A stretch of 64,000 bases of DNA from Phyllobates terribilis (Eukaryota). The notes below the pieces were generated by a model. The model was not told the origin of the DNA, searched no databases, and saw only the letters and a program-made list of their open reading frames with translations. Below are positions 925 to 64,000 of this stretch, in pieces. The position numbers and the translations under genes were made by a program. Position 1 is the first letter of the stretch. The number at the start of each line of letters is the position of its first letter. The stretch is taken from the NCBI RefSeq assembly GCF_046119375.1, contig NW_027362770.1, positions 139,376,001-139,440,000 of the forward strand. Direction: 5' to 3'.

Positions 925-947
925 AAGAAGCTACCCGCACTGAATCC

Positions 948-18342: not shown

Positions 18343-18484
18343 GGGTATGTGCACATGGTAAGTATTTACTGCAGACATTTCGGAATCAAAAACGTGTGTC
18401 TTGGCAGGAAAAACACTGCATAAAAAGTATTTTTGATGCATTTTTTATAAAACACTGGAAAAAGCGCGACATGTAAACATACCC
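18343..18484. mobile_element. 142-bp PIF/Harbinger-type MITE
   Basis: TIRs GGGTATGTGCACA / TGTAAACATACCC; TTA on both sides. Confidence 0.65.
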
Positions 18485-20559: not shown

Positions 20560-22695
20560 ATGTCCCAGGGGGCGCGTCAACTTTGGCGTAGTCGGCAGGA
20601 TTACGTGCCCGCAACACCCGGGTACTGCGTGCCTGAAGAAAAGTGCAAGTTTACCTCAGAAAGAAGTCTCCCGCCGGTTCCGGAGGGTCCACGCCATCGG
20701 ACTCCATCACCAGTCGTTTCCCGCCGATTGTCCGCCATTTCCAGCTTGTTCCCGCCATCTGCCGAGTTTCCCGCCACTGGGAAGCGATTCCCGCCAAAAC
20801 CGCAGATTTCCCGCCTTGGAAGAGCAGCGGACGCCATTATGGGCGTGCCAAAGGAGAGCAAGAGGCAACCTCCCATCGTGGGCCAGGACAGAAAATGGCG
20901 CCAAAAGTGGAAACCGCCCCCACCAACAGAGACTGTGATGCTGGAGGTGTCTGTCAGCGTGAAAGAACTCCCCCTGGAGCTGACAGTCACCGAGTTGCCC
21001 CGGGACCGCCCTCGAAGTGGGAGGAGACGAAAGAAAGGAGAGAAGATGGGTGTCGCCTGGAGCAGTGTAGAACGAGCGCACCCGGAGGCAAGAGGTCTAA
21101 TGAGGAGTAGCGGAGAAGCTCACCCGGAGTTGAGGAGAGAAAGAGTGGACCCGGGAATGGAGCGGCAGCAGAGCAGCACCGGCCCGCTGGCCAGGAGCCT
21201 GCTGGAGGAAGAAGGAGGAGAGCAGAGCAGCACCGGCCCGCTGGCCAGGAGCCTGCCGGAAGCAGAGCAGAGCAGCACCGACCCGATGGTCAGGAGCCTG
21301 CTGGAGTCAACAACCCCGCTAGGCTTAGCGGAGATCCTGGCGCAGCTTCCCCGAGATCGGGAGTGCGCGCGGAGTGCCCTGGAGGGCCTCGCGGGAAGGA
21401 TGGCCCGAGTGCAGAGGGAGATCCTGGCGGAGTGGGGCCGGGAGATGGCCCAGCAAGCTGGAACCTGTCCACCTAACCCGCTCCCTTGGAAGAAGACATC
21501 GACTGCCTCTGCGGATGACGCGGGAGGACCCAAGGCCGGAGACGGCGCAGAAGAGGGAGCGAGACGCATGGCAGCAGGTAAGGGGGATGCCTATACCCCA
21601 TACCGGAAGACCGCTTACCTGCCCCAGCTCCCCGTCGCAGAGCCCGAAGGTCCCCCGGCCGTACCCGAGACCGCCATGACACCGCCACCGACTAGGCCCC
21701 GACCGGAAGCCGCCGTCGCGACCCCGATGACGTCACGCATCGTGACCCGGAGCGTGGCGCCGGAAGAGGAGCCTCCGGCCTGGTCACAGGGCCTAGCATT
21801 TCCGGGCGCCGCATCCAAAGCAGAGCCATCTACCTCCGCGGAGCCTCCGGCCTGGTCGCAAGGCCAGGTAACCCAGGGCGCCGCCGTCCTAACGGTGCCC
21901 TTCACCTTCCAGGTGCCCCAGGCCTGGCCGCAAGGCCTGGGCAACCCGGGCGCCACCACCACCGCGCCCGCGCCCGTAATACCTAGGGTGCCACATCTGG
22001 GAGAGGACCCCTTCAGCCAGCTAACGTGGCCGGACGGTCGGCCTTTCATCTGGCCCGAAGGATTCTTGGAGCTGGAGCGGCAGAAGCAACTAGGTCCCCT
22101 GTGTGAGCCCCTAATCCCGGCTCCGAAGCCCGTGACTCGGGTCTCGCCTCCACTCGAGGAAGCCCAGTTCGTGTGGGACCCCACGGGAGAAGATTTGATG
22201 GGGTTCACCGGAGAGACTCGGGCAGCTGCAGCAGCGCGCACAGAGTGTTGCCGTCAACAGCTGGCAGAGTTCAAGAGAGAGCGGGAGGAGAGGCAGGCCA
22301 AAGAGCAATGGGCCCAGACCCGCAGCGCGGAGCAAAAGAGTCGGACCAGAAGGGACCCCCGTGCAGCAGATCGTCCCCGTACCATCGGGACGGTAATAAA
22401 GTTTAATGCGCAGCATGGGTGGGGCTTCATAAGGGACCGGAACACCATGGGTGACGTCTTCGTTACACGACGGGACGTCGAGTCCCACCTGCCAGAGGGT
22501 CACAAAGGCCGTGACCTCTACGTCGGTGACGAGGTAACGTTCACCCGGCACAAGTGTGCCAAGGGACCTTACGCCCTCCACGTGCATCGCTTGACGGAGG
22601 AGGAGTTGCGGTGCGAGGAGGAGGAGCAAGAGGACCCGGACGGGTCTGAAGAAACCACCAGCCGTAAGATAAGAGCAGGAGGCAGACGCCGTTGA
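20560..22695 (+). CDS. Uncharacterised protein: low-complexity N-terminus, coiled coil and C-terminal cold-shock domain (711 aa from the LTR ATG; 618 aa from the Kozak ATG at 20839)
   Basis: 22381-22593 encodes TIGTVIKFNAQHGWGFIRDRNTMGDVFVTRRDVE...LYVGDEVTFTRHKCAKGPYALHVHRL, which fits the CSD pattern (G-x-V-K-x-F, RNP1 xGxGFI, RNP2 DVFV, GD-x-V-x-F, KGP-x-A-x-x-V). The ORF is uninterrupted. Confidence 0.88.
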   Translation: MSQGARQLWRSRQDYVPATPGYCVPEEKCKFTSERSLPPVPEGPRHRTPSPVVSRRLSAISSLFPPSAEFPATGKRFPPKPQISRLGRAADAIMGVPKESKRQPPIVGQDRKWRQKWKPPPPTETVMLEVSVSVKELPLELTVTELPRDRPRSGRRRKKGEKMGVAWSSVERAHPEARGLMRSSGEAHPELRRERVDPGMERQQSSTGPLARSLLEEEGGEQSSTGPLARSLPEAEQSSTDPMVRSLLESTTPLGLAEILAQLPRDRECARSALEGLAGRMARVQREILAEWGREMAQQAGTCPPNPLPWKKTSTASADDAGGPKAGDGAEEGARRMAAGKGDAYTPYRKTAYLPQLPVAEPEGPPAVPETAMTPPPTRPRPEAAVATPMTSRIVTRSVAPEEEPPAWSQGLAFPGAASKAEPSTSAEPPAWSQGQVTQGAAVLTVPFTFQVPQAWPQGLGNPGATTTAPAPVIPRVPHLGEDPFSQLTWPDGRPFIWPEGFLELERQKQLGPLCEPLIPAPKPVTRVSPPLEEAQFVWDPTGEDLMGFTGETRAAAAARTECCRQQLAEFKREREERQAKEQWAQTRSAEQKSRTRRDPRAADRPRTIGTVIKFNAQHGWGFIRDRNTMGDVFVTRRDVESHLPEGHKGRDLYVGDEVTFTRHKCAKGPYALHVHRLTEEELRCEEEEQEDPDGSEETTSRKIRAGGRRR
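20584..20602 (+). promoter_or_regulatory. Primer-binding site for tRNA-Ser (AGA/TGA type)
   Basis: TGGCGTAGTCGGCAGGATT is the reverse complement of the vertebrate tRNA-Ser 3' end AATCCTGCCGACTACG-CCA (from memory); 4 nt after the LTR. Confidence 0.88.
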
Positions 22696-25600
22696 GTGCG
22701 GCAGAGCAGGAGACTGTATATAGTTGCCTGTCGGGGCACAGTGAATCGAAACTGAAACTGGAACTGTTGTTGCTGCTAAAATAGTCCCCGTTGGGACCAG
22801 CGAACTGTTACCTGTAACCCTTTCCATACCAGGCTGAGGACTGTGAGCAGCCATCCCTTTCCCTTTACCTGGCCGGGGACTGAGAACGGCCAAAGTTTCC
22901 CTGTACATAGTTGCGCTTGCTAAAGCGCCCCCTACCGGTTTTATTTGGGAAACTGTTTTACAAAAGACTGTCGCACTCTACCTGGTCACGAGTTGCACGG
23001 TGACCAGAGGAACAGAAGAGAGAAAGAGACGACGAGAATGTTGTTTACCTGAAAAAGTTTATATATATATTTATATAGTATTTCGTATAATATTTAATAT
23101 GTTTTACATGTTTATAAAAATGTTGTATGTTTTGGTGTTTTTTGTCTTTGCAGCCCGAGGACGTGCTGTGATTTACCAGGGGGGAATGTAGCACCCTGAG
23201 GATTCGGCTGCTACAGGAGTATTGCACCTCAACCCAGAGGTGTGATATTCCACTCCCGGGTAAGGAAGGAGTGTGGAACTGAGCTCAGATAGACTGCATG
23301 CACTACATACATCCCATTCCAGAGGAGCAGGCCGACGGCACTCCCACTTAGAAATGTGCAGGTGCGACCGAGCCTGTTCCTGGCTGGAGTGGGAGGGGGG
23401 AGGAACATCCCATGTAGTGTAGGGGCAGATAGGGGGAGCAGTCTGGGTAGTGTTAGGAGCTCATTGGGTGCTGGTCACCTGAGCTCACACATAGAGGGTG
23501 TATATAAGGTGGGCACCATCAAAGATCAGGGTCAGACGCAGAGGACAAGTCAGATGCAGAGAGTCAGAAGGAGAGAACAAGTCTTCTGCAGAGGAAGTCA
23601 GCCTGCAGCAAGGGAGCAGAGCAGACCTGAGCCTGAAGAGTGAGAGAGTGGAGTGCAGAAAGACCCAGAGGGGGACAAAGAAGGGACCCAAGAACCCAAA
23701 TCAGATCACCGGGTGAGGAGTCAGCAGAAGGGTACCGGAACCCAAGCTGGTGGGGGCAAAGACATTCCCCAGCCAGAGACCGGAGACCGTGGGCAGTGTC
23801 TGTCACGGTCACCCACTACATTCACCCTGAAGGCACACCACATGGAGGGTCAGGGAACCTTAGGCCAAAGGTTGCCCAACAGAAGGCCCGAGGGAGCTGG
23901 ATTTAGGTGAATCACTGGTGGGGACGGCTGAAGTAAGGACAGAGGGAGAGCTCAGGGCCACGCTCCGGACTTGTTTGGGGGTTGGCCGGATCCAGGACCT
24001 GGTGGACGCAGCACGGCTCGGGAGGTCACTTGGAGCTAGAGTGACCAGGAACATCTGCAGTAAGTAAAGACCCTTAACTGCACAACCCGAGTCTGTCATC
24101 ATTACCGGCTGCACCGCACCACCACAACCCCCATCCTCTGCGCCTGTCCCCTCTGAGGCTATACCCCTCCCGTTGGGGGTTATCCCACCAAGCTGCGCAC
24201 CTACCATCAGCCTCAGCGGACCCTGCAGCAGCGGCGGCCACAGTGACCGCATCACAACGGGTGGCGTAGTCGACAAAACGAACTTTAATAACATCAGTAA
24301 AGACTGCCACATAACACTGAGCTTGACGCCCTGGGCACGGGACCGGGTCACAGCCGCTCGGAGACTACAACCCCCCATCTGATCCGGTGCCGGGTATTCC
24401 CCTCAAAAAGGAATATGTCCCAGGGGGCGCGTCATACGCACAGCACGACGAGGGAAGTTATGATCTGCAGTGTAACTTGGAAACTGATAACCGTGAGTAA
24501 AGACCCTGGGACTGCATCACCTTGTCTCCGTGTTTCTTACCGCGCCAACACTCACTGTACTGGGACGCCCCGCACAACCACCATCATTCACCTGCGCTGC
24601 CCTGAAGCTACACTCTTCCTGTGGGGAGTTATACTACACTTGCTGCACATACCACCAGCTTCAGTGGACTGCTCCGCAGCGGCGGTTCTCCATAACCGCA
24701 ATCCACAGGTGGCGTAGTCGGACTATATAACCTATACACATAGACTGCCACTGGTTTGACCGCCCTGGGTCACGGACCTGGTCGCCGCCACGGTGACTAC
24801 TACCCCCAGCATCTACAAGGCCCCGCTCCAGGTGCCCCCCCACGGCCCAGGGGGCGCGTCAGGTACGTCATAGGTCGGTTGCTTCCCCCTGTTTGGTGCG
24901 GGCTCTGGCGATGAGCCTGCATCTTTTCCGGCACATGATCTGATCAACTGTCATGAGCCCCTAACAGCCGCGGATGGAATCACGATCCACCCGTCACTGT
25001 TAGCATGTTAAATGCCGCTGTCAATCTCTGACAGTGGTATTTAACATAGATAAATGTAACCTTCAGCACTCATAAAAGTACAAAAGTTGATGCATGAAGT
25101 GAAAATTTTATTCACAGCCGACACAAAAGTAAACAGATCAAATCCAACGTTTTGGCATATTATTGCCTTTATCAATGTTATCTGTGTCAATATAAGACAT
25201 AACAAAAGATATAATGACAAAATTTTAAAAGACAGATCAAAATAACAAAACAAAAAATCTATATATATAATCGTCTTATCCTGTCTGTCTGTCTGTCTGT
25301 CTGTCCAGGAAATCCCGCGTCGCTCATTGGTCCGGCCGCGGCCAATCAGCGACGCGGGATTTGAGAAAAAGATGGCGGCCGTTAGCGGCTCATCTGCAGG
25401 ACGGAGGTCAGCGGCGATACAACAGGGAGATGACCGGCGCGAGGCGCTCATCTCCCGGCCGCTAGCAGCAGAAGGACCCTGACCGGAGGCGCCACTGACC
25501 TCCATGCGGCTAGGGTGTCAAGGGAGGACCGGGGAGTTGCGTTGCCGGTCGGGATACTTCTGCTGCAAGCAGCCGCTCATCTCCCAGCTTCTCGCAGCGG

Positions 25601-28060: not shown

Positions 28061-28137
28061 TATAGTGAACATTTTGAACCCAGAGGTACGACACAGAATT
28101 TGATAACATTAGGTCATCATATTGAATAAGTTGTCAT

Positions 28138-28438
28138 TAGTCTTGAGCGCAAGTGCTCGCCACTTGAGTTTGCATCGGGTACTCAGGTATGCACCATGTA
28201 CTGCGTGTGCTCGAGTGACATGCTCGAGTCCCTGCCCCGCATGTTTCACGGTTATTAGACACCCAAAAAAAAACATGCGGGGATCGCTCGTGCATGGCAG
28301 GCAATCCCCGCAAAGTTTTTTTGGCCGCGAAGCATATGGGGCGGAGACTCGAGCATGTCACTCAAATACCCACGATACTCAATGCATACCAGAGCACTCG
28401 ATGCAAACTCAAGTAGCGAGCACTTGCGCTCAACACTA
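28138..28438. mobile_element. 301-bp hAT-type MITE
   Basis: TIRs TAGTCTTGAGCG / CGCTCAACACTA; 8-bp TSD GTTGTCAT / GTCGCCAT (6/8); largely palindromic body. Confidence 0.85.
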
Positions 28439-34105: not shown

Positions 34106-35688
34106 GTACTGTTTAAAGACTGCGGTCAGTCACTCCTGCACATCCTCCCTATACGGATGCACCTTTCATATCTTTGTGCAGACCCCCTCAACTCCAGGTA
34201 TGTAAACACCTTCTTGGCTACTCACATTACTGTTGCTGCTTTCTTCTCTTGGTGCTGTCTTGGTTGTTCTTGGTCTTGCATTGGTTCCTCTTCCATACAT
34301 ACATATATATACCATCTCTGGTTTATATCAACCTATGTTAGAGTTTCAGATGAATCCCGTTACTACCTATATGGGTATCCCAGCCTTATATTCATTATGA
34401 CACTTTCTCCTTTTGCTACAGTCTTATCTTTTGTACTTACTCTATGGCTGTTCTAGATTATACATATATTCACACCCGCAAATGTTTCTATTTTTCCATT
34501 TGACTAATAGATATATTTTATGACTACCTATGAAAGTCTGTATATGCATATACGTTTATATGTATATGTATATGTGGCGCCCTGCTGTGCATTGGTGCCA
34601 CAGATCCTAGAGGGGTGCATGGATGGATTCCTCCACAAGAGGCCCCCATAGCATACACACACCTCCACCTTCCTCCTCAGATCACCAGAGGGTGCCCGGA
34701 TAGGGATATAAAAAGGGAAGGTGGAGCTAGGCAGTTCAGTCTAGTCTGTGAGGAGGTCAGTCTGCTGCAGCCAGAGAAGTTGCCAGTCCAGCCTAGACTC
34801 AGGGAGCTCAGGTTATTGAGCCAACAGCGTGCCGACGCCATAAGAGCGGTGAAGAGTAGCGAGGCCTACTGCCAGTGTGAAGCCTAGTTAGGGCCCCGAG
34901 CACGGCCGAAGGCAAGTGGAGTAAGCGAGCTGCATAGGGGGCGGAGGAGCTTAGCCAGCTCACCCCAAGACCATATACCGGACACCGGGTCCGTGCCTGC
35001 TGGGATCTCTACGACCAGCAGAAACTACCGGAACCCCTGGCGAACTACATGTCCCAGGAACACCACAAGCTGACCATTATACCAGGGTCAGGAATCACTG
35101 AGGCCCAAGAGACCAGGGAGTGTGATCTCCAACAGAAGGCCCTACCACCAGGTCAGCAGGTGCAAGACAGAGACTAAGTTAGGCCTAGCTCCAGGCGGGT
35201 CACAAACTTATCAGGAAAAGGCAAGAAACAGGAGGCCCCACACCCCCTCACTGGGGAGAGTCCTGAAATGCACCCTTCACCCTACAGTGCCCTGGATCGT
35301 GCCTGAAACACCACTAGTAAAGGTACTGAAGTGAACTGTCGTGTGTGTGCCTATTCTTCTTCTGACCCGGGTGGGTCCCCTCTGTCCTGCATCCCTTCTC
35401 CTACACTGCCCTGAGGCCCCGCTCCACCTGTGGGGAGCCGCAACAACTAAGCTGCCTGATCACCGGCCTCAGAGGGCTGTAGCAGCGCTGGTGATCCTCA
35501 CCAGATACCACGGGTGGCGTCACCAACTTTTACTATCCCATACACCTTTCCCCCATTATCCATTCCTTGCTTTTTAAGAGTGACCCCAGGGTACGGCCCC
35601 AGGATCCGGCCACAGCGGCATCCCCCAAAACCAACAACAAGGCCCGGGCGCCTAGTCGTCCCCATTCCCTGGGCGCGTCATCTCTTCC

Positions 35689-35707
35689 TGGTGTCACAAA
35701 CAGGATT
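35689..35707 (+). promoter_or_regulatory. Primer-binding site, tRNA-Ser(CGA) type
   Basis: TGGTGTCACAAACAGGATT vs the complement of vertebrate tRNA-Ser(CGA), TGGCGTCACGAACAGGATT (17/19; tRNA sequence from memory). Confidence 0.65.
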
Positions 35708-36068
35708 CCGTGCCCGCTGCAACGATGGAGTGTTCTGCCCGTTGCCACCGGGTACTGTGCGCCTTTAATCAAAAGCTGTGTATTTAACTGTGGCAAAGAT
35801 TGCCGCCATTGTTGTGCCGCCGAGCGGGAAGAAGGGCGTAACTGCGGGAAACTGAGAGGCGTACCTGCTGAAGCGCGCAAAGCCCCAGACACGCCCCACG
35901 CCTCGACGTCAAACCAGGAAGCGCCAGGTCCTGGAAGGAGCGCCGGTGAGTGCTCTGACGTAGGACGCAAGCGACGCAAGGTCCTGAAGAAGACCGTCAC
36001 CTGCAGAGCTGCGGCCTACCGGAAGACAAGAAAAGAAGGTAGGCCACGGTTCGCTAGGGGGCGCCAGA

Positions 36069-37127
36069 ATGTGCGAGGAACAGCACAACGCCGGAGTACT
36101 GGTTAACCGCTCTGATAATCAACCCGCACTCGGTGCCGAGCAGGCCGAAGCAGCCGCTTCACCAGCAGGGCCTGTAACCCCTGTCATACCCATGGCCCTA
36201 CCGTACATCCCTGGAGTGAAGTGGCTCCCCCAGTACAGCGGCAAACCAGATACCATGTCTGGATTTAAATGGAAAATATGCGGTATACTGGACATGTACT
36301 CTATGACAGGCAAGCAAAGAGCCACTGTTGTATTGAGACAAATGACTGGTGCTGCGGAGCGGGAAGTAGAAACTTGGTCGGCCGCAGACCAGGAGTCAGT
36401 GTCCGCCATCTTTAAAAAGTTACAGACTGTCTTTGAGAATCGTACTGAGACAAAATTTCCGGATGAGGTTCTACAACTGCTCTCAGCAAGCGGAGGACAG
36501 TGTTCGGGACTATGCCTGGCGTTTACAAGGGGCCCTGGAGCTCTGAAACAGGTTAGTCCAACCAGCATCAATGATGAAAATAAAATGCTGAAGGAACAGT
36601 TTATCCGGGGACTGAGGTCCCAAGAGGAGAGCAGGACTGTGCGTTGGTGGTCCCTGGATCATCCAGATACCACCTTTGACACCCTTAAGGACATGGCTAT
36701 AAAAGGACTGCAGCCCCAGGAAACAACTGCTATCCAATGTTACCAGGGTGGGGCCACCCCAGTGCCTGTTGCGTCCACCTTTTCCCCGGTGGCTGCTGAA
36801 GCCAAGGTTCCAGCAACGTCCCCTAGTGAGCTGGACAGCCTGCGCTCTGAAGTGCGTCAGCTGAGCAAAACCCTAACCACTGTACTGAGTGCCCTGCAGC
36901 TGCGGACGGAGCCCGAGGAGGAAAGAAGGATCCTGCTAGCCGACAGCCCTGAGGATGTCCCCTGGATGAGAAGGAGGAGGACAACGCCACCCCCTGGGAG
37001 GACCAGCGACCAACGCCGCCCGCCGAGGGACCCTGTCTGCCACCACTGCCACAAGACAGGTCACGCCATCCAGAGCTGTCCTTTAAACGAGAAAACCCTG
37101 GGGCCGAGGGCCGACACCCAGGAGTAG
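36069..37127 (+). pseudogene. Gag of element E (probably frameshifted internally)
   Basis: LPQYSG capsid-like start; LKEQFIRGL; CCHC knuckle CHHCHKTGHAIQSC. Confidence 0.8.
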
Positions 37128-40100
37128 ACCCCCCAGGCCCATCAAACTGGTACCGCAGGTTCGTGGGAGGAAGACCTTACCTGTCCATTGTACTGTACGG
37201 CATCGCAACACCCGCTCTGCTGGACACAGAATCTCAGGTAACCATCATGTCTGATGTCCTCTACAAAAGGTTCTGGTCCATAGACAAACTTCACCCACCA
37301 GATCCAAATCTTTCCGTCTATGCCTCAAACGGCCTTCCCCTTAACCTAGTCGGGGTTAAGGATGTGGCAGTAAAGGTGGGAAGAGTGGAACTGAAGGACC
37401 AGGAACTAATTGTAGTAGAGACTAATCCTGATGATACCAGCTTGTATATGGTACTTGGCACTAATGTTGTTAGTAACTGTTTGGGAGAAGTGTTGTTCTT
37501 GCTCCAACAGATAGCTGACACTGCCAGACCAGGGCAGAGAAGAGCGCTGCAGAAAGAGATCCGAGCCCTTATGTACCAGCAACACGTAAAGCTAACCGGC
37601 GGTGAAATTGATAATGTACGGGTGACAGACCCGGTACCCATTGTGATTCCCTCGATGAGTAAAATGCTGATTTGGTGTAGAGCAGCAATAGGTCTCAAAG
37701 GACGGAGCTACCAGGCGGTAGTAGAGCCCCTTAGCTCGGAACATAGGCCTACACTCTTGACTGCTAGAGGGGTAGTGGATGTACGCAATGGGAGGGTGCC
37801 CGTACGCCTCCTAAACTATGGGGAAGACGAGGTTAGATTACCACGCTACGCCACTGTTGCCAAACTGTACACAGTAAATAACAACTCCATACAAACGGCG
37901 GAGTCCTTAACCTCACCAGACGAAGTGGAGGATAATGACCCGGCCACCCAGGTGGAGGATTGGTGTCAACAGCTCCATGTTGGGACAGACACCAATCCTG
38001 CCCATCAGAAGCAGGGTGTACACCAGGTGGTTCAGGAATATGAGCAGGTATTCAGTAAGCACCCACTTGACTTTGGGAGGATTAAGGGGGTTCAACACCA
38101 TATCCCCACAGGTGACCATCCACCCATCAAAGAACGTTACAGGCCTATACCACCAGCACACTACCAGAAGGCAAAGGAGATGTTGCACGACATGAAGAAG
38201 GCAGGGGTAGTAAGGGATAGTTGTAGTCCCTGGGCAGCTCCCCTAGTTCTAGTCAGGAAAAAGGATGGAAGCATGAGAATGTGTGTAGATTACAGACAAG
38301 TAATTCGCATTACACATAAAGATGCATACCGTTTACCACGTATAGAGGAATCCCTGGCTGCCTTAAAGTCTGCAAATTACTTCTCCACCCTTGACCTCAC
38401 TAGTGGGTACTGGCAAGTAGCCGATGGGACTCTGCGAGTTCAATAGTATGCCGTTTGGACTCTGCAACGCCCCCGGAACGTTCCAGAGATTGATGGAGTG
38501 CTGCCTGGGACACCGCAACTTCGAGACTGTACTACTATACCTGAATAACGTGATAGTGTACTCCAAAACGTATGATGACCACTTGAAGCACCTGGCGGAG
38601 GTATTTGAGTCACTGTCCCGGTATGGGATGAAGCTGAAGCCCTCAAAGTGCCACCTGCTCAAGAGAAAGGTACAGTACCTGGGGCACATCGTTAGTCCAG
38701 AGGGAGTAGCACCAGACCCGGAGAAGGTCACTGCCATCCAGAAATGGCCGGAGCCGAAGAGCCTCAAGGAGGTACGTCAGTTCCTGGTACTAGTCGGGTA
38801 TTACCGGAGGTTTGTGAAGGACTATACCAAGAAAGCGGCACCTCTGCAAGACCTCCTGGTAGGACAGTCCCCCAGAGGCAGAAATCCCCCATTCCAGTGG
38901 GGTAAGGAGCAGGCTGAATCCTTTAATGTGATGAAGGAGATCCTGACCGGCGAAGAGATCCTAGCCTACCCTGACTACAGCCAACCGTTCCTGCTGTACA
39001 CTGATGCCAGCAATGAAGGATTAGGAGCTGTACTGAGTCAGAAGCAGAATGGCAAAGAGAAGGTGATCACCTATGCTAGCAGGAAGCTCCACCCGACCGA
39101 GAGGAACCCAGAGAACTATAGCAGCTTCAAGCTGGAGTTCCTAGCCCTGGTCTGGGCCATCACCGAGCGGTTCAAGCACTATCTAGCCTCCAGTAAATTC
39201 ACTGCCTTCACTGATAACAACTCCTTGACTCATCTGGAGACAGCTAAGCTAGGAGCCATGGAACAACGATGGATGGCTAGGCTGTCAAACTACCAATTCA
39301 CTATTAAGTACCGGGCGGGCCGCAAGAACGCCAACGCCGATGCCCTGTCCAGGATGTCAGACACTGAAGAAGAAGTGGATGACCTGGAGGAGATTGAACT
39401 ACCTGCCTTTCATCAGAATGGGATAGTCCACGAGCAACGAGCCTCCAGGAGGCAACGTGGTAAGACGTTAAACCCCCTGCCTCACCACAGCTGGAAGGAG
39501 ACCCAGGACAGCGAACCGGTTGTCAGCCGTATCAAAGAACTGATAACCCAGGAAGGTTCCTCCCTGGAGAAGGAAGCGTCTCTCCAAGCCAAGCAGCTGT
39601 AGAATGAGAAGAGCCGGTTGTTCATCTATAGAGAGAAACTGTGCCGGAGGTACGTCAACACCAAAACCCAAGAGATGGTATGGCAGATAGTGGTGCCCAA
39701 AACAGACATCCAGATGGTGTTGGAAGCCTACCACGATCAGGCGGGGCACTTTGGCTGGAAGAAGCTAGAAACCCTGCTGAAGTGTCGGTTTTATTGGGTA
39801 GGAATGCGCAGTTCCATTGAGAGGTGGTGCCGGAATTGTGGACCCTGTAGCCTCAGAAGAAAAGACTACAGCAGCCAGAAGGCACCCCTGCAACCCATCA
39901 AGACAACTCGACCTTTGGAGATCGTGGCCCTGGACCATGTCAAGCTGTCACCCAGCAGGTCAGGATATTCCTATGCCCTGACCATGGTGGATCACTACTC
40001 CCGGTTCCTGGTGATCGCCCCCGTCAAGGACCTGATGGCATAAACTGCGGCGAAGACGTTTCAGGCGTACTTCTGCAGGCCCCATGGATACCCGGAGCAG

Positions 40101-41174
40101 GTGCTGACGGATCAAGGCTCAGCCTTTGAAGCCGAATTGTTCAAGGAGTTCTGCCATCTGTACGGGTGTAAAAAGATCCGGACCACACCGTACCACCCCC
40201 AAACCAACGGTCTCTGTGAAAAGATGAATAACATCGTCATCAACCTGCTGAAGACCTTACCACTAGAGGAGAGAAATCAGTGGCCAGACCTACTACCTGA
40301 CCTGGTAGATCTGTACAACCACATACCTGTGAGTTCCACCAATTGTACTCCAGCATATCTCATGCGAGCCAGACCCGGGAAGTTGCCCATGGACCTGGAG
40401 CTTGGTGTAGTAGAACCAGAAGCAGATATGTCCACTGAGGACTGGGACACGACCAGACAGGAGCAGTACAGAAGAGTACAGGCCTGTGTCGAAGACAGTC
40501 TCACTCGGGTGAGGGACAAGCCGGAAGCCCACTACAATAAAAGTGCGCCCGCAGAACCCTTCACACCAGGAGAAGTGGTGTTAAAGAGGAAGAGGAGAAA
40601 TCACAAACTTGATGACCAGTGGGAGAGAGAACCCTACACTGTGTTAAACTCAAGATTTGATAACAAGAAGACCTGTTTGATTAGCAAAGACGGAGGAATA
40701 ACGACTGCAACGGTATCTAGAGACCATGTGAAGTTGTGTCCAGACCTGCTAAAGCCCCAAGAAGAAGTGCCTCTCACCGTACCGGAGGAGCCTAAAGAAG
40801 CAGTACTCCATACTGACTTAGGAGATTTCCCGGCAGATTGGCCTCAACTAGGAGGAGCAGTAATAATCCCTGTGATCCACTTCTTTCAACAGCCAGAAGA
40901 CCCTCCACAGCAAGAAGAGCCTGTAAGTGCTTCAGAAGAGCCTGTTCAAGAAGAATCCCCGGAAGAAGGATCCCCGGTTGGAGCAGAGCAAGAAGGCCCA
41001 GCCAATGGTACACTTGCCAGTCCAATAGAGAGGTTAAGGCAGTTTTACAACCTACCCACACGTAAAACTGACAGGGTAGCAGACAGTGCAGACACAGATA
41101 CCATCCACACTGCCGTACTACGCAGATCGACACGTAGCACACGAGGTCAGACCCCTGTCAGATACAGAGAATAA
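37082..41174 (+). pseudogene. Pol of element E (protease, RT, RNase H, integrase), broken by a deletion/frameshift and stops
   Basis: LLDTES (DTG-like); SPWAAPLVLVRKKDG...VDYR; FSTLDLTSGYWQV; YLNNV (YxDD lost); RH YTDAS...NYSSFKLEFLAL; IN H...H...CRNC, ALDHV, TDQG, LCEKMN. Confidence 0.93.
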
Positions 41175-44100
41175 AGAAAGAAACTCTGACAGTGTAGATA
41201 GTTGCCCTTGGGGTATTATATTGTGTGTTTTCATATATGTATTTATTAACTTGTGTTTTGCTTTATAATGGACAATCTAAGTGAAATGGACACTTTTCTT
41301 GTTTGCCTCTAACTACCCGTCAGGGTACATATAGAACTTTGTGGCTAAGGATGGTGTGCAGCCCAAAAACTGCTTCTTGTAAATAATTGCACTCCCTGGA
41401 GTGCCCCTTTAGGTGACCTCAGAAGAAAAACCTGTCTGGTGTGGCACTAACAGAGGTCCAACTCAGGATCGCCATGCCCTACAGCCACCCCAGGGCCTAC
41501 GTGGAGGGTTTGGGACAGGTCCCTCAAGCTACTAAGTACTCTAACCTGTGAGATGGACATCCTGTTGGAAACCTCACCGAAAGAGACTTGAATTCTGAGG
41601 TTGTTTATCAAATTGTACATATCTGTTTATTATTTATAATGTTTTATATGTAACATTCAAGCAAGTGCCTCCCATAAAGGGAAGAGTTATTATTATTGTT
41701 GTTATAAAAAGTACTTCAGTCCGGGAGTACTGAGCTTTGCTAGGGGGGAATGTGGCACCCTACTGTGCATTGGTGCCACAGATCCTAGAGGGGTGCATGG
41801 ATGGTTTCCTCCACAAGAGGCCCTCATAGCATACACACACCTCCACCTTCCACCTCAGATCACCAGAGGGAGCCCGGATAGGGATATAAAAAGGGAAGGT
41901 GGAGCTAGGCAGTTCAGTCTAGTCTGTGAGGAGGTCAGTCTGCTGCAGCCAGAGAAGTTGCCAGTCCAGCCTAGACTCAGGGAGCTCAGGTTATTGAGCC
42001 AACGGCGTGTCGACGCCATAAGATCGGTGAAGAGTAGCGAGGCCTACTGCCAGTGTGAAGCCTAGTTAGGGCCCCGAGCGTGGCCGAATACAAGTGGAGT
42101 AAACTAGCTGCATAGGGGGCAGAGGAGCTTAGCCAGCTCACCCCAAGACCATATACCGGACACCGGGTCCGTGTCTGCAGGGATCTCTACGACCAGCAGA
42201 AACTACCGGAACCCCTGGCGAACTACATGTCCCAGGAACACCACAAGCTGACCGTTATACCAGGGTCAGGAATCGCTGAGGCCCAAGAGACCAGGGAGTG
42301 TGATCTCCAACAGAAGGCCCTACCACCAGGTCAGCAGGTGCAAGACAGAGACTAAGTTAGGCCTAGCTCCAGGCGGGTCACAAACTTATCAGGAAAAGGC
42401 AAGAAACAGGAGGCCCCACACCCGCTCAATGGGGAGAGTCCTGAAATGCACCCTTCACCCTACAGTGCCCTGGATCGTGCCTGAAACACCACCAGTAAAG
42501 GTACTGAAGTGAACTGTCGTGTCTGTGCCTATTCTTCTTCTGACCCGGCTGGGTCCCCTCTGTCCTGCATCCCTTCTCCTACACTGCCCTGAGGCCCCGC
42601 TCCACCTGTGGGGAGCCGCACCAACTAAGCTGCCGGACCACCAGCCTCAGAGGACTGTAGCAGCGCTGGTGATCCTCACCAGACACCACGGGTGGCGTCA
42701 CAAACTTTTCTTATCCCATACACCTTTCCCCCATTATCCATTCCTTGCTTTTTAAGAGTGACCCCAGGGTACGGCCCCGGGAGCCGGCCACCGCGGCATC
42801 CCCCAAAACCAACAACAAGGCCCGGGCGCCGAGTCGTCCCCATCCCCTGGGCGTGTCATATACAATTATATACATGTATTTTTTATTTTGTTATTTTGAT
42901 CTGTCTTTTCAGATTTTGTCATTATATCTTTTGTTATGTCTTATATTGACACAGATAACATTGATAAAGGCAATATGCTGAAACGTTGGATTTGATCTGT
43001 TTACTTTTATGTCGGCTGTGAATAAAATTTTCACTTTATGCATCAACTTTTGTACTTTTATGAGTGCTGAAGGTTACATTTATCTAAGTATTATCTGCTC
43101 CTTCATAGCACCTTCTTCGTTTTTTGAGTGCTGACACTCTTGACCCTTGATATATAGTGGTATTTAACATACACGCAGCGGAAGGGCGTCATTAGTTCCG
43201 CCCATCGGTGCCCGTCACATGATCGCGGGGTGCCGATGGGTTAACATGACAACTCATGGTCTGCTGAATACCCCAGTGCTTGTGATTGCTGATCTACTAT
43301 GAGCTCCGCCCTGTGGCCGGCTACTGGACAGATGATCATTTCTGCTACACATAGCAGGGCTAAAGACTTGCTATGTGTAGCACAAGCAATTGGATGATCG
43401 CAGCTTCCAGTCTCCTATGCAGACTATTGAAGCATGTAAAAAGTAAAAAAAAAAGTTTTTAAAAACATTAAAAAAATGAAAACATATAAAAGTTCAAACA
43501 ACCGCCCCTTTGCCCCATTCAAAATGAAACAATAAAAAAAATCAAAAATACACATATTTGATATTGCAGCGTTCAGAATCGCCCGTTTTATCAATATATA
43601 AAAATCCTGCACCTACAGTACTTCCTATTCATGTACTTTACCCGTATCCTGCTTTCTCTGCTCTCCATGGCACTGTTTATGCTTTCTCTCTTCTGCTATC
43701 ACTAAGAGACGAGAATAGGAGAGCAGAAAGAGCTGTCAGAACCGGGATTAGGAGCTCTGACAATGTGTAACATTTTGCAGAGCACTCTTGGTACTCATAA
43801 CTTTTAAACTAACTGCATACAATCATACTTGTCAACTTTTCACAACTGAGTCTGGGAGAGGGAAGGATAAAAGATTGAAAAAAGTAAAAGCCAAATTAAA
43901 CCAACAAAGGTCGCACACTTTTGAGAATAGTGGCGCAAGCAGGTGAAAAAGGGACACAAAGCCTCAAATTTTTGCACAAGTATGGACTTAAGTAAAAATG
44001 CGCAACTCGCATATTCTACAGTGGAGAGGGTTACATGCATGATGTTTAACTTTTTGTGGTGCGAATCAGGGAGTAGGTGATCTTACGTGCAACTGATTAT

Positions 44101-54134: not shown

Positions 54135-57100
54135 TGTGGTGCCCCTGAGGGTTCGACCGCCACAGGGATGCTGCACTTCTTTAATGGAGTGTAGTTTTCC
54201 TCCTCTGAGGTAAGAACAGTGTGATGGTCAGGACCCAACCTCCACATCCAACACCACACTTCTCCCACCAGAGGGGGCTATTACGCACCAGCTGCTGCCC
54301 CTACTGGAGTTGGGAGAGAGGGGAACCAAGATTTAGGGGAACCAATTAGTGGGTGAGGGTGGAGGATTCACATTTTAGTGACACTTAATAATTCATGTTT
54401 AATCCACAGCCATTTTGGTTCTTGGTTCTTTGACTGTTCTTTATTGTGACTTTCCTCCCTGAGCGTGGATCCTGTGTGGACCTGCAGAGGATGGAGGCAC
54501 GGCCCTCGTACCCTGGCCTTGGGTCGAGGGGCAGGTTGCAGATAATGAATGTCTCAGCCCGGTCAAGGACCATGACCAAGAAGGCCCGGAGTTTAGGAGT
54601 GTAGCTCCACCCAAATGGATCCCAGGGAGGATGCAGACGGAGCGGTATATGCCACCTGTCCTCGCCAACCTGATCTATTCAGAGGGATTCCGGCTGCAAG
54701 AGGGGTACCGACCCCCGACACCTGACCTTGCTACTCCACGTCCTGGTCAGGGAAGTTCGGTAGGCCCTGAGGATCCCACCGGGTATCGGAAGGAGCGGAG
54801 CTGCCACCCGTAGCCTTTTTCTGAGTGAAGTTCAGAGGGAGACCCGGCCTATCTACACACACACAGAAAGGAAAGGACCCGGTCTGAAGTCTAGGAACAC
54901 TCTGGTGCGGGGTCCTGATTGAACACTGGACTTAGTCTGAGGTTGTCGGACCCCCCCGTCTCTGGTGACTGCAGAACTCAGCGAGGAGCAGGGAGATGCC
55001 TTCCTACTGCCATCTCCATCATGAGTAAACAAACCCTGGAAATTAACCCCTATGGCCTCCGGACTCTTTATTCTGCATTACACCACATTACACAGCACCA
55101 GACCTCCTAGACTACTACTTCCTCCATCCTGTCCCTCTGCCCTGAGGCCCTGCTCCGCCTGTGGGGAGTAGTAACAACTATGTCTGCAATAACACCATGC
55201 CTCCGCGGACTGCAGCAGCGCTGGTGGCCTTCACCAGGTGCCACAGGTGGCGTAGTCGAGATCAGCCAATCAGCCACTCAACCCGGACAAGCCCATACCA
55301 TCCTTTTTTTAGTGTGACCACCCTGGGCACGGAGCGGGTCCGGGCCACGGCTGCACCCCATCTACCACACTCGGGTCCCGTCTCCGAGTCCCCCATCTCC
55401 CAGGGTAGGGCTTTCGTGCGCCGCACAAACTGGCGTAGTCGGCAGGATCGCGTGCCTGCAGCAAAGGAAGGAATTACCCATTGCTACCGGGTACTGTGTG
55501 CCTTACACCTTGGACTGTCGTTTTCCACTTAAAATGGCGCCCGCCCTAGAAGAACAGGCGCCATAGTGCATCAGAAACACGGTCTTCTAACACCTCCTAT
55601 CGTGGACCAGGCTCCCACATGGCGCCAAAAGTGCGGACCGCCCCTTCCATCAGAAACTGTCCGCGGGGTAATGCCTGTCAAAATGGATGGGCTGAACGAA
55701 GGCGTGCCTGTCAGCAAACCGCCCTGGAGCCGCCCCGAAAGAGGAGGAAAAAGAAAAACAACAAGGTGCGGCCATTGCAGTTGGAGTTTGGCAACCTTCA
55801 GGAGCGGACATGGACGCTGCTGGAGCGCAACAAACGGAGCCTTCCGAACCCGGCCCAGGTCCTTCCCCCGGCAGGGAGCGAAGCGGCACCAGACTTACAG
55901 CGGGAGATATTGAATTTCTCCCCCAGGAAGCCCCGGGTCTTGCACGGAGACTGGATGAGGCCCAGAAGGCGGCGTCTGCTGCGTGGTGGGAATAAATGCT
56001 GCTGCGCCTCCGGACCCGCCGCCGAGGAGCTGAAGCTCAGGGAGAAGCGGTGACAGAGGTTGTGAGCTGCTCAGAGGCGGGTGAGTGTGTTACCCCTGCC
56101 CCGGCTGCTGAACCTACCGTACCCATACTGAACCTCATGGCCAAGTATCTCCTGCCCGGCGCGGTCACCTGGGAGCAGGTCTTTGCCCCGGAGCTGCAAG
56201 CCTCTGCTATTGGCGGGGACCTGCACTGCCGCCCAACTCCTGAATCGGAAGTACCTGAGGCTGTGGGGGTATCCACCGACCCCAACCCGGACTGGTCCGC
56301 ACTTACAGAGGACCCGCAGCAACCCCTGCTGACACCGCTGCCCACACTAACAGTCACCTGGCCGGCGGCTGAGGAGTGGGCCTGGGACAACCAGGGGGGG
56401 ACCTGATGGGCTTCCCCCGGGAGACTCGGGCTGAAGTGCAGAGGAGGAGCGAGCGGTGCCGTGAGCAGATTCTCCAACTCAGCCGGGAGCAACGCCAGAG
56501 GGAAATCCGCTGCGAACGCCTCGAGGTGCGGGTCAAGGCTGCAAAATCCCGGGCCCGACAGGAGGAAGCTACCCGTCCAAGCCCCCGTGTGGAAGGGCAA
56601 GTTGTCCGCTTCCACCATGAGGTGGGGTGGGGGTTCATAAGGAGTTCCCAGTATCAGGACGACATCTTTGTCAGCAGGCGGGACGTCGAGCCGCGGCTGA
56701 AAAAGGGACACCCTGGCCGGAACCTCTTCCCGGGTGACGTAGTTACTTACACCCGCCACCATGGGGTGCGGGGGTGGTACGCCCTGGATGTCCACAAGGT
56801 GTCCGGTAGCGACGCCCCACACGCTCAGCCTCAGAGGACAGGTCAGCCTCTGTCGGGAGGAATGAGCCTTTTCCCAGGAGGGAACCCGAGAGTTAAGCAG
56901 CCCCGGAGGCTGTAACTTGTTTAAAGTTGTTTAGTTCATGTTTATGGTTTAAATTACATTCCCGGTTTCTAGAGACATTGGTCCCTGCGGACTTTCAGCA
57001 GACAGACTCCTTACTTGTAAATAATTTGCATCTCTTTAGGTGCTCCTTATTGGTTTTATGTGAAACCGCGGATATTTCTACCTCAGACCTCGGAAGAAAA

Positions 57101-58728
57101 ACCTGTCTGGAGTGGCTCTCCTGGAGGTCCAACTCGGGATCTTCATGACCTGCAGCCACCCCAGGGCCCACGTAGGGGGTTTGGGACAGGTCCCTCGCGC
57201 TTCTGAACTGAATCTTCGTCCTTACACTTTAATCAGTCTGTCTGTGCATAAATGTCTAATGATAATTCTAGCACTTTTATATTTTTATACCTTTGTACTT
57301 TTAAATTATTATATTCTGTTTGAAACGTTTAAGAAGAAGTGCCTCCCAAAAAGGGAAGATCGTTTACTGTTTATATAAAAAGAAAAACTGTACCAGGTAT
57401 TGCTCTTTTGCAGCCCGCGGACGTGCTGTGTTTCACCAGGGGGGAATGTGGCGCCCCTGAGGGTTCGGCCGTCACAGGGATGCTGCACTTCTTTAATGGA
57501 GTGTAGTGTTCCTCCTCTAAGGTAAGAACAGTGTGATGGTCAGGACCCAACCTCCACATCCAACACCACACTTCTCCTACCAGAGGGGGCTATTACGCAC
57601 CAGCTGCTGCCCCTACTGGAGTTGGGAGAGAGGGGAACCAAGAGATAGGGGAACCAATTAGTGGGTGAGGGTGGAGGATTCACATTTAGTGACACTTAAT
57701 AATTCATATTTAATCCACAGCCATTTTGGTTCTTGGTTCTTTGACTGTTCTTTATCATGACCTTCCTCCCTGAGCATGGATCCTGTGTGGACCTGCAGAG
57801 GATGGAGGCACGGCCCTCGTACCCTGGCCTTGGGTCAAGGGGCAGGTTGCAGATAATGAATGTCTCAGCCCGGTCAAGGACCATGACCAAGAACGGCCGG
57901 AGCTTAGTAGTGTAGCTCCACCGCAAATGGATCCCAGGGAGGATGCAGACGGAGCGGTATACGCCACCTGTCCTTGCCAACCTGATCTATTCAGAAGGAT
58001 TCCGGCTGCAAGAGGGGTACCAGCCCCCGACACCTGACCTTGCTACTCCACATCCTGGTCAGGGAAATCCGGTAGGCCCTGAGGATCCCACCGGGTATCG
58101 GAAGGAGCGGAGCTGCCACCCGTACCCTTTTTCTGAGTGAAGTTCAGAGGGAGACCCGGCCTATCTACACATACACAGACAGGAAAGGACCCGGTCTGAA
58201 GTCCAGGAACACTCTGGTGTGGGGTCCTGATTGAACACTGGACTTACTAGGAGGTCTCGGACCCCCCCGTCTCTGGTGACCACAGAACTCAGCGAGGAGC
58301 AGGGAGACGCCTTCCTACTGCCATCTCCATCATGAGTAAACAAACCCTGGAAGTTAACCCTTATGGCCTCCGGACTCTTTATTCTGCATTACACCACATT
58401 ACGCAGCACCAGACCTCCTAGATTACTACTCCCTCCATCCTGTCCCTCTGCCCTGAGGCCCTGCTCCGCCTGTGGGGAGTAGTAACAACTATGGCTGCAA
58501 TAACACCATGCCTCAGCGGACTGCAGCAGCACTGGTGGCCTTCACCAGGTGCCACAGGTGGCGTAGTTGAGATCAGCCACTCAACCCGGACAAGCCCATA
58601 CCATCCTTTTTTTAGTGCGACGACCCTGGGCACGGAGCGGGTCCAGGCCACGGCTGCACTCCATCTACCACACAGGACCCGTCTCCGAGTCCCCCATCTC
58701 CCAGGGTGGGGCTGTCATGCGCCGCACA
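54135..58728 (+). mobile_element. Non-autonomous LTR element 'C' encoding a (now frameshifted) cold-shock-domain protein
   Basis: LTRs 54135-55427 and 57447-58728; TSD AATG; PBS TGGCGTAGTCGGCAGGAT at 55431-55448; PPT AGGGGGGAA; no gag or pol. Confidence 0.93.
55566..56915 (+). pseudogene. CSD-protein gene of element C (homologue of 20560-22695)
   Basis: PPIVDQAPTWRQKCGPPLPSETV matches B PPIVGQDRKWRQKWKPPPPTETV; WD..G/DLMGF..ETRA block with a frameshift at the G7 run 56394-56400; CSD at 56589-56801 is 36/71 identical to B. Confidence 0.88.
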
Positions 58729-59438
58729 AATGCTCCCAGGTTGGTTCGTTAATTCCACACCCCTTATCCTGAGAAACCCGGTCCTGAATGTCTGGAGGCC
58801 ACTCGTAGAGGGGGGGCACTGTCACGGGTGTTTCAGAAGTGACAGACAGTCGTCCTGCAGTGGATTGCATGAGATCTCTACATTTGGCATTGGAGGCACC
58901 TTCTTAGAGGCTGTCTCTAGGACCCAGTGGCTACCTTCCTCTGGCTAATTAACACCTTGGCCTGGGTGTATAAATACCTGCTGTGTTCCAGAGGGAGGTG
59001 CCGGTGATATTCATTCCTCCGTTTCAAGGCTTTAGCAAGAGCAGTACTTCTTCCTCTCTGGTGCCTGAGGACATGTGCGCATTTGTCTGGCGTCATCTAA
59101 AGCTAAGCTATTTCCCCCTGTTTGTCCTCCCTTGTTGTCTAGCCTTAGGCGCCAGGGAAAGACAGGACGAGGAACGCGTGCGGTGATTTGTGAAGAGCCA
59201 ATATAGGGACGTTAGGGGAGACAGGGTGATATTCTATCAGCCAGGAGGTCTCCACTCCCCCCTTTCCCTAGAGTCTGGGCTTCCTTTCCCTCTTCCCTTT
59301 GTGTGGCACTAAGTCTTTCCCACACCTTGCTTAACAGTTATGCACCCATTATTTAATGTATATGGTCCTCCTCACCAAGTTAATGTTTAGTTAAAGACTG
59401 TTTATATTTGACTGGTGGTCTCCATCATTGATCTTCTT

Positions 59439-62164: not shown

Positions 62165-64000
62165 TGTAGCACCCTGAGGATTCGGCTGCTACAGGGGTAT
62201 TACACCTCAAGCCAGAGGTGTGGTATTCCACTCCCGGGTAAGGATGGAGTGTGGAACTGAGCTCAGTTAGCTGCATGCACTACACACATCCCATTTCCGG
62301 GGAACAGACCGACGGTACTCCCACCAGTTTATGTGCAGGTACGATAGTGTCTGTTCCTGGCTGGAGTGGGAGGGGGGTGGAACATCCCAGTAGTGTAGGG
62401 GCAGATAGGGGGAGCAGTCTGGGTAGTGCTAGGAGCTCATTGGGTGCTGGTCACCTGAGCTCACACATAGAGGGAGTATATAAGGTGGGCACCAACTTAG
62501 GACAGGGTCTTTTGCAGAGTGAGGTCAGTCTGTCAGAGCAGAGGAGAAGAGCAGCTCCAAGGCCAAGAGAGAGAGAGGAGAAAGAAAGACCCAGAGGGGG
62601 AGAAAGAAGGAACTCCAAGAGCCCAAATTAGACCAGAGGGTGAAGAGTTGGCAACAGGGTACCGGATCCCAAGCTGGCAGAGGCTACAGCACACCTTAGC
62701 CAGGAACCGGAGGTCGTGGGCAGGATCGATCTGCCACGATCACCCACTAAATGCACCCGGAAGGCAGACCAGGAATAGGGTCAGGGAACCCAGAGACAAG
62801 GGTTTACCACCAAGAGGCCCGAGGGAGCCGGACATAGGTGGATCCCTGGTGGGGAAGGCCAGAGAAGAGGACAGGACAGAAAGGGAGCTCAGGACCACGC
62901 TCCAGAATCACCTGGGGGTTGGCTGAGTCCAGGACCTGGTGGACGCAGCACGGCTCGGGTGGTCACTTAAGGCCGGAGTGACCAGAACAACTGCAGTAAG
63001 TAAACAAACCCTGAACTGCACAGCCCGACTCTGAGTCTCATTTCCACCCTCGCTGCACCACCACAACCCCCATCCTCTGCAACTGACCCCCTGAGGCTAT
63101 ACCCCTCCCGTTGGGGGTTATACTACCTGAGCTGCACATACATCACCAGCCTCAGCGGACCCTGCTGCAGCGGCGGCCGTACTGACCGCAATTCAACGGG
63201 TGGCGTAGTCGACACAAAAGAACATCTAGTAACATCATAAGGACTGCCACACACTGAGCTTGACACCCTGGGCACGGACCGGGTCACAGCCACTCGGAGA
63301 CTACAACCCCCATCTGATCCGGCTCCGGGTATCCCTAACAGCACTGGCCCAGGGGGCGCGTCAACTTTGGCGTAGTCGGCAGGATAACGTGCCCGCAACA
63401 ACCGGGTACTGCGTGCCTGAAGAAAAGTACACCGTTACCTCAAAAAGAAGTCTCCTGCCGGTTCCGGAGGGTCCCCGCCATCGGGCCCCATCACAGGTCG
63501 TTTCCCGCCGGTTGTCCGCCATTTACAGCTTTTTCCCACCATCCATGGAGTTTCCCGCCACTGGGAGACGATTCCCGCCATTTCCGAAGATTTCCCGCCT
63601 TGGAAGAGTGGACGCCATTATGGGCGTGCCAGAGGGTGGCAAGAGGTCACCTCCCATCGTGGGCCAGGTCGAAGAATGGCGCCAAAAGCGGAAACCGCGC
63701 CCACCAACAGAGACTGTGATGCTGGAAGTGTCCATCAGCGTGAGGGAACTGCCCCTGGAACTGAAGTTGCCCCGGGACCACCCTCAATGTGGGCGGAGAC
63801 AGAACAAGAGAACAAAGATGGGTGTCGCCTGGAGCAGTCTGGAGAGAGCGCACCCGGAGACAAGACGTCTGGAAGAGAGTCCAGAGAGAGAGCACCCGGA
63901 GACAAGACGTCTGGAGGGAGAGTCAGGCAGCACCGACCCAGTGGTCAGGAGCCTGTTGCAGGTCGCCACTCCAGAAGGCCTGCTGGAGATCCTAGCACAG
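62165..64000 (+). mobile_element. Element 'D', a relative of B, truncated by the window end
   Basis: 5' LTR 62165-63363 homologous to the B LTR; PBS TGGCGTAGTCGGCAGGAT at 63368-63385; leader collinear with B. Confidence 0.92.
63620..64000 (+). CDS. N-terminal 127 codons of the B-like protein (open to the window edge; CSD predicted downstream)
   Basis: Hand translation MGVPEGGKRSPPIVGQVEEWRQKRKPRPPTETVMLEVSISVRELPLELKLPRD...KMGVAWSSLERAHPE...STDPVVRSLL...LEILAQ is collinear with B. Confidence 0.85.
   Translation, partial: MGVPEGGKRSPPIVGQVEEWRQKRKPRPPTETVMLEVSISVRELPLELKLPRDHPQCGRRQNKRTKMGVAWSSLERAHPETRRLEESPEREHPETRRLEGESGSTDPVVRSLLQVATPEGLLEILAQ

Follow-up and report, generated by a model that had tools for sequence, protein, structure and literature searches.

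How retrotransposons that encode neither gag nor pol come to move, and on which relative they depend, is a question raised by a 64,000-nucleotide stretch of the genome of the poison frog Phyllobates terribilis (contig NW_027362770.1, positions 139,376,001 to 139,440,000 of the forward strand; hereafter the window, with positions counted from its first letter). Four related long terminal repeat (LTR) elements and two solo LTRs of the same group lie within these 64 kb: B, C and D, which lack pol and of which B and C encode a cold-shock-domain (CSD) protein, and E, a decayed Ty3/Gypsy element. All four, with the features of theirs given below, read on the plus strand. The first-pass annotation held that the CSD elements arose from the lineage of E by replacing gag-pol and are mobilised by it, and that a 111-nt block in the 3' untranslated regions (UTRs) of C and E is a packaging or dimerisation element. 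The best overall explanation of our results, which we regard as fairly probable, is that B, C and D are satellites of E's Gypsy lineage, mobilised in trans by an intact sister family, and that the block is a module of the 3' UTR.

Element B (19332..24434) has two identical 1248-bp LTRs, the target-site duplication (TSD) TACG and an open frame at 20446-22695, with its first internal ATG at 20839, which ends in a long helix followed by a CSD (22168..22605, as identified by Pfam, a selection test and a predicted structure). Element C (54135..58728) has LTRs at 54135-55427 and 57447-58728 and the TSD AATG; its open reading frame (ORF) is broken and retains a helix-plus-CSD piece at 56373-56915. 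Element D (62165..64000), a relative of B (81% over 1.8 kb), is cut by the end of the window, and its CSD region and 3' UTR fall beyond it. Similarity to pol or gag was found in none of the three, either with Pfam or by tblastn with the five protein pieces of E (best E-value 0.24), in line with the earlier description of the ORFs as unrelated. In both B and C the cis-acting frame is complete without pol. The two LTRs of E differ by a Kimura two-parameter (K2P) distance of 0.037 and those of C by 0.045, whereas those of B are identical over their full 1248 bp. Because B lacks pol and gag similarity yet has identical LTRs and an intact TSD, it was recently inserted by enzymes from elsewhere. These data support the view that B, C and D are non-autonomous and need reverse transcriptase (RT) and integrase in trans, and their mobilisation in trans is very likely. 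A solo LTR of a related family (18517-19331 and 24435-24861; 69-75% like B and D, piecewise) hosts the B insertion, and a further related LTR end lies at ~4296-4653.

Element E (34573..42858; LTRs 34573-35680 and 41751-42858; TSD TATA) has what defines a Ty3/Gypsy LTR retrotransposon: TG..CA LTR ends, a primer-binding site (PBS), a polypurine tract (PPT), a TSD and, by Pfam, the domain order gag (CCHC), protease, RT, RNase H and integrase. The relatives of its pol are Gypsy-type polyproteins from frogs and fish, and a PNMA-type domain is present in a number of them. This copy lacks intact gag and pol frames; its coding region is split into five pieces by stops and frame changes, and the description of E as autonomous was not borne out. 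A weak dUTPase match lies between its protease and RT (36953-38446; E 0.005, under the Pfam cutoff). The LTR distances place C and E at similar ages. B is younger than either. Because E is decayed, its LTRs are 3.7% diverged where those of B are identical, and its primer site is different, E itself is not supported as the helper and is rather the helper's relative.

The CSD elements and E share a cis-acting frame. The 4-bp TSDs of B, C and E were confirmed, as against 5 bp in element A, a separate Gypsy lineage in the window, and so were the PPT AGGGGGGAA at 23178 (B), 57438 (C) and 41742 (E) and a motif downstream of the PBS at 20618 (B), 35748 (E), 55487 (C) and 63402 (D). This post-PBS motif is predicted to form the 3' side of a 7-bp stem found in 4/4 elements. 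The stem encloses an arm that contains an inner helix in E (35710..35755; 32 nt enclosed) and C (55452..55494; 29 nt enclosed), and a 7-nt loop in B (20605..20625) and its D counterpart (63389-63409). A long stem in U5 (35585..35673 in E) is formed by CCCAGGG...CCCTGGG in E and by CCCTGGG...CCCAGGG in B, C and D, a compensatory swap of the central pair. Just before the PPT stands a hairpin (with the PPT, E 41717..41750, B 23151-23186, C 57411-57446) in whose outer stem one pair of E is replaced in B and C by a compensatory one. The kinship of the LTRs was likewise borne out: those of C and E agree at 78% across 138 nt of U5, those of B, D and the two solo LTRs belong with the C/E group, and no match to the LTRs of B, C, D or E was obtained with those of elements A and F or with the one at 1-266. 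At the LTR start, B, D and E form a hairpin of 7-9 bp (19332, 34573, 41751, 62165) with stems that differ by compensatory changes; C prefers other folds.

The primer sites fall into two types. The PBS of C (55431..55448) recurs unchanged in B (20584) and D (63368) and matches 18/18 bases of a human tRNA-Ser template given in PMC3299991 (also PMC7449687). ARAGORN found no tRNA genes in the window. The PBS of E (35689..35706) is unlike it in sequence and may resemble another tRNA-Ser isoacceptor. Each type has an echo inside the LTR, 9-11 nt that copy the start of the element's own type of PBS and lie 167-183 nt upstream of the true PBS. The E type stands at 35515..35523 and at 42693 in the LTRs of E, and the B/C/D type at 20407 and 24262 (B), 55248 (C), 63201 (D) and 4511 and 24710 (solo LTRs). 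The echo type differs between E and C despite their 78% likeness around it, and the pattern is unmatched in the 3' LTR copy of C. The joint variation of echo and PBS reads as a single switch between two types, which is a lead rather than proof; the echo may offer the tRNA a second place to pair, act as a decoy for tRNA fragments or be left from an old duplication. Taken together, the sequences support a cis-acting frame (U5 of the LTR, leader, 3' UTR islands, PPT and 4-bp TSD) that the CSD elements and the E-type Gypsy lineage inherited from a common ancestor. The proposal that the CSD elements arose by replacing gag-pol is reasonable, but on these data such a replacement is indistinguishable from an older modular exchange.

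The likeness extends into the 3' UTRs. The 111-nt block (E 41415..41525; C 57086..57196) is identical at 96/111 positions without gaps, as annotated (blastn E 6e-34 within the window), and blastn found no third copy in the window. Also confirmed was a downstream motif, AAGTGCCTCCCA.AAAGGGAAG, common to E (41663) and C (57337), as part of a 22-nt motif (E 41663..41684, C 57337-57358). By blastn, both the block and the 22-nt motif are missing from B. Along the UTRs of E and C, identity reaches 72, 86 and 95% in islands, compared with a background of 52-54% that itself beats 200/200 shuffles in two of three spacers. Islands in a background still above shuffles fit homologous UTRs in which the islands are under selection. 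To gauge spread, contigs from four sequencing runs were placed on C 56300-57500. In X1, a DNA run, contig depth, which does not equal copy number, is 49,000-115,000 over the block, 600-8,300 over the adjacent C-type UTR, 1,600-20,000 at the end of the C ORF and 263,000-436,000 at the pre-PPT region and LTR start, and the profiles of X2 and X3 have the same shape. Coverage in run X16, which may be RNA, was set aside as evidence of expression. Among the loose ends listed, two at exactly 57086 carry an upstream hairpin of E type, and another, at 57196, is mixed and matches neither E nor C letter for letter (agreement 0.56); among the rows listed, the majority letter at 57092, 57148 and 57176 is that of E. 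The depth contrast, the E-type loose ends and the E majority letters therefore suggest that the block extends beyond C-type copies to a broader lineage.

Beside the block lie copies of TGTAnATA, the consensus of the Pumilio response element (UGUANAUA; PMC5758885). One is followed by a 6-bp hairpin in each UTR (E 41378..41404, with a 4-nt loop; C 57016..57043; B 22902..22928), a second by a 5-bp hairpin in B (22715..22740) and E (41193..41216), and a third, in E (41614), has no hairpin. The counts of 3, 1 and 2 per 3' UTR in E, C and B compare with 0.04-0.08 expected (5000 shuffles each). Across the 64-kb window there are 24 such sites on both strands, 5 of them with TTGC at most 2 bases after, and each of these 5 falls in a 3' UTR of B, C or E, in sense orientation. 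A stem of at least 5 bp (5-6 bp) occurs at 5/5 of these sites, compared with 31/429 TTGC sites overall (the five included). The small stems covary: in the three 6-bp copies 18/18 cells pair, with three two-sided changes, and slid controls fall short. In UTR context the hairpin has a predicted probability of 0.6 in E and 0.8-1.0 in C and B. Two further contexts from the sequencing-run contigs, among the loose ends listed, end in TTGTAAATAG and join C at 57026, so other copies also carry the Pumilio site. The exact consensus is thus present at 6 sites in three UTRs, a sequence match from which binding is predicted, and 5/6 have the hairpin at fixed spacing, unlike the arrangements in the quoted portions of PMC5758885. 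In the literature covered (largely open-access journals), we found nothing that pairs the Pumilio element UGUANAUA with LTR retrotransposons. A Smaug-type loop was considered for the hairpins and dropped, as the loops differ between copies.

It is quite likely that the block is functional. The long-range stem ACCTGTC/GGACAGGT proposed for it can form, but is context-dependent, with a probability of ~0.2 in the isolated block, 0.77 in the C UTR and 0.02 in the E UTR; the block consensus favours an outer GACCT/AGGTC stem at the block borders, which is incompatible with it. Column shuffles, a lax control, fold as well as the block in 6/1000 cases. Rfam gave no match at gathering score in the window (5 in the E UTR at E 1.9-7.4 were rejected) and no homology of the block to a described RNA transport element, and matches to self-cleaving ribozyme models were absent, as were hammerhead or HDV core motifs. 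Viral (10) and metagenome (71) loci that fit a pattern search were set aside as chance matches; in blastn of the three UTRs against these 81 loci the best alignments covered 20-25 nt around the pattern, and nothing exceeded 50 nt.

The most serious alternative is the one first proposed, in which the block serves packaging or dimerisation and the CSD elements have E's own family as their helper. The block is indeed common to two elements of similar age, one pol-less and one of autonomous type. Its terminal hairpin is predicted in both isolated copies with a probability of 0.75-0.86, the loops retain the palindromic core ACGT, and the two loop hexamers are mutually reverse complementary. In the E UTR context, however, the probability of that hairpin drops to 0.17 and the loop is poorly formed. 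The PBS of E is different. A packaging signal should be present in every mobilised member, and the block is missing from B, the youngest element and the most recent to transpose, so it is not a universal packaging signal. Together with its 3' position and weak structure statistics, this means that the block was not upheld as a packaging or dimerisation element, and we consider the alternative unlikely. Less probable still is that template switching or gene conversion brought the block into C from an RNA of E type, as a passenger that would say little about dependence. C is a mosaic, B-like in its ORF, PBS and pre-PPT region (93% over 43 nt) and E-like in the middle of its UTR and in its leader loop, and B and C are near synonymous saturation (dS about 1.7-1.9) where the block is 86% identical. 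Yet conservation lies in islands separated by spacers of 52-54% rather than in a single continuous tract, C-like contig pieces span both block borders in other samples, and template switching would itself imply co-packaging. That the block is an independent small repeat inserted into both UTRs, as its depth far above the C flanks and the mixed context at 57196 might suggest, is very improbable, since it lies at the same place and in the same orientation in both elements, between the Pumilio hairpin and the 22-nt motif, has E-type upstream loose ends among those listed, and has neither a third copy in the window nor an Rfam match.

Returning to a satellite relationship with a conserved UTR module, several observations weigh against it. 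On the side of the helper, no intact one was seen, with DNA comparisons covering the window and the contigs placed on it; the best named RT/RNase H relatives of E in the same species are 78% identical to it, and E does not have the primer site of B, C and D that a helper would be expected to share. The U3 of E and C, and the third UTR spacer, from the 22-nt motif to the pre-PPT hairpin, are no more similar than shuffles. Shuffled versions of the block fold about as well as the block itself (z -0.65 and -0.37). The block has one two-sided change in 32 predicted consensus pairs, and one partner of the changed pair, the C letter at 57176, is the minority letter in the runs; substitutions spare the block's structure only marginally (56 and 91/1000 controls with re-placed substitutions were as good). 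As for the Pumilio hairpins, their covariation comes from three related sequences, and 24/500 shuffles scored equally high; five copies in one forced register give weaker support (11-72/500 shuffles), and the motif was noticed by inspection, which makes its statistics post hoc.

With these points in the balance, descent from and mobilisation by an E-type lineage remain likely. Of the claim that the CSD elements are mobilised by the E lineage, the part that stands is founded on non-autonomy, shared signals and TSD length, whereas E as the helper is unsupported for the reasons of decay, age relative to B and primer site given above. B, C and D would descend from the same Ty3/Gypsy lineage as E and would retain the signals read by the Gag, RT and integrase of that lineage, namely the LTR ends, U5 stem, PBS, post-PBS stem, pre-PPT hairpin and PPT, with a single helix-plus-CSD ORF in place of gag-pol. 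Packaging, reverse transcription and integration of the satellite RNA would be carried out in trans by an intact family of E's lineage, probably a sister family of E with the B/C/D primer site rather than E's own subfamily. Such a family is plausible because E-type RT/RNase H relatives exist in the same species and across frogs and fish. The block would be a lineage-wide, selectively conserved 3' UTR module, kept by C and lost by B. Most likely it would act after transcription, on the nuclear export, the localisation or the translation of the full-length RNA, next to Pumilio-type sites. In the MusD/ETn elements of the mouse, a structured export signal lies at a comparable position, according to the portion of PMC7289599 that describes it. 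An export, localisation or translation role is favoured over packaging because the block is dispensable in at least one satellite, sits at the position of that export signal and lies beside Pumilio-type sites. As to the precise job, we tentatively place export or translation first; accessory packaging or dimerisation is a lesser possibility, as, to the same degree, is some other role. For the obligatory packaging signal, the post-PBS stem would be the better candidate because of its position and its presence in all four elements.

The protein that stands in place of gag-pol has been maintained by selection. The PF00313 score is over the Pfam cutoff in both B and C, the GWGFI and VFV motifs are present in both CSDs, and the proteins are 45% identical across 137 residues. 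Between B and C, where dS is close to saturation, dN/dS is 0.33 for the helix plus CSD and 0.24 when only the CSD is counted; between B and D it is 0.46 downstream of the first internal ATG. By these sequence comparisons, the helix-plus-CSD protein of B and C is under purifying selection. Upstream of the first internal ATG, a coding status of the B frame was unsupported (dN/dS 0.8, with an interval that includes 1). The predicted model has a 45-residue helix, then a five-stranded barrel (mean pLDDT 82.6), and the barrel matches the CSDs of CspA and YBX at an rmsd of 1.7-2.6 Å. Identity to the listed solved CSDs (CspA, YBX1/2, CARHSP1, Unr, Lin28) is just 21-37%, too low to single out a donor. 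With known CSD proteins (CspA, YBX1/2, Lin28, Unr/CSDE1, CARHSP1) the B and C proteins share PF00313 and a five-stranded barrel; they differ in that a long low-complexity arm and the 45-residue helix precede the CSD and in that it is carried within an LTR element. Judging by the domain family, the protein would most simply be an RNA chaperone or protector serving its own element.

Over its C-terminal 431 residues, the product of the B frame has 97-98% identity with a protein that RefSeq lists for Phyllobates terribilis. Homologue searches gave 1 match among 2424 candidates, 3 among 8000, and 513 proteins at E <=0.001 (150 listed). We checked the origin of 10 listed homologues: 6 come from Phyllobates, Ranitomeya or Anomaloglossus, and the others include a dinoflagellate multi-CSD protein and a bacterial protein. 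The six frog proteins align with B across the CSD plus part or whole of the preceding helix, and among the homologues checked close relatives occur in dendrobatoid frogs only. A CSD profile matched 0/120 pol relatives of E (best E 0.31), so that none of these is an autonomous element to which a CSD has been fused; a protein atlas returned just generic bacterial CSD clusters with scores <0.9. One Phyllobates gene model (P0004) fuses the helix-plus-CSD region with PF13359/PF04827 (Harbinger-like DDE) sequence and is probably a chimera across adjacent repeats.

LTR helper-satellite pairs are already known; what appears new here is the CSD-carrying satellite. The closest parallel in way of working is the mouse ETn/MusD (ETnERV) pair, in which a pol-less satellite carries the cis signals of a coding relative. 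That pair belongs to the endogenous retrovirus class of a mammal, and the present one to Gypsy in a frog; ETn is non-coding, whereas the B and C satellites keep a selected CSD ORF; and trans-mobilisation has been demonstrated for ETn, whereas for B, C and D we infer it. In frogs, Xenopus 1a11, xretpos(L) and lambda-olt 2-1 are LTR elements that, like B and C, have an ORF and no pol homology (PMC4585706). The 1a11 ORF is described as Gag-like, unlike the CSD ORF, and "cold shock" has 0 occurrences in the main text of that paper. We found no report, in the literature covered, of an LTR satellite with a CSD protein under purifying selection, nor of a packaging signal common to non-autonomous and autonomous LTR partners. 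Among the pol-less LTR elements of plants and fish (Dasheng/RIRE2, LARDs, TRIMs, zebrafish bhikhari), LTRs, PBS, PPT and internal blocks are held in common with the autonomous partner; these elements are non-coding or Gag-only and usually have the partner's PBS. To our knowledge none of them carries a cold-shock domain. The present family may already stand in Dfam or Repbase under a number.

The remainder of the window, by self-comparison, is repeat-rich frog DNA. Element A (11908-17084) is a chromodomain Gypsy with LTRs 99% identical and the 5-bp TSD noted above; its 1070-aa frame has gag, protease, integrase and chromodomain, with no Pfam match to RT or RNase H, and it is possibly another non-autonomous derivative. 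The LTR pairs 1-266/4758-5023 and 49377-49930/58820-59322 enclose gag or gag-pol remains, and C is apparently nested in the second (49377-59322). Inverted-repeat pairs around and beside E, nested within one another (25044-25274/42862-43089, 30476-30586/34464-34575 and 33051-33218/34112-34468), suggest DNA transposons or miniature inverted-repeat transposable elements. A long palindromic array lies at 26600-28500. Broken transposase-like frames on the minus strand (6923-9590), with a BED finger and dimerisation motifs seen by eye, look hAT-like. Minisatellite arrays occupy 30853-33050 (31-nt units), 59642-61100 (28), 2800-3700 (36) and 5400-6700 (about 130-137).

A bolder possibility, which we put forward as speculation and think improbable, is that the 3' UTR signals shared with the helper are targets of the satellite's own protein. 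The helix-plus-CSD protein would act on the Pumilio hairpins, and on the block where present, would keep the satellite RNA stable or open to translation in the germline and would gain it entry into helper particles, while the LTR echo would switch with the PBS as a second tRNA-pairing site, the whole forming an old, still active dendrobatoid class. If true, an LTR satellite of an animal would here be steering its helper actively, much as satellite phages do, and would not be a mere passive product of deletion. Since the sequence common to satellite and helper is all non-coding, their comparison marks the RNA signals needed by a vertebrate Gypsy lineage, free of coding constraint. The signals so marked, each of them short, are the post-PBS stem, the U5 stem, the primer-site echo, the Pumilio hairpins, the dispensable 111-nt module and the pre-PPT hairpin. 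The finding bears on how the very large genomes of poison frogs fill with LTR elements, and it suggests that Pumilio controls the translation of retrotransposon RNA in the germline.

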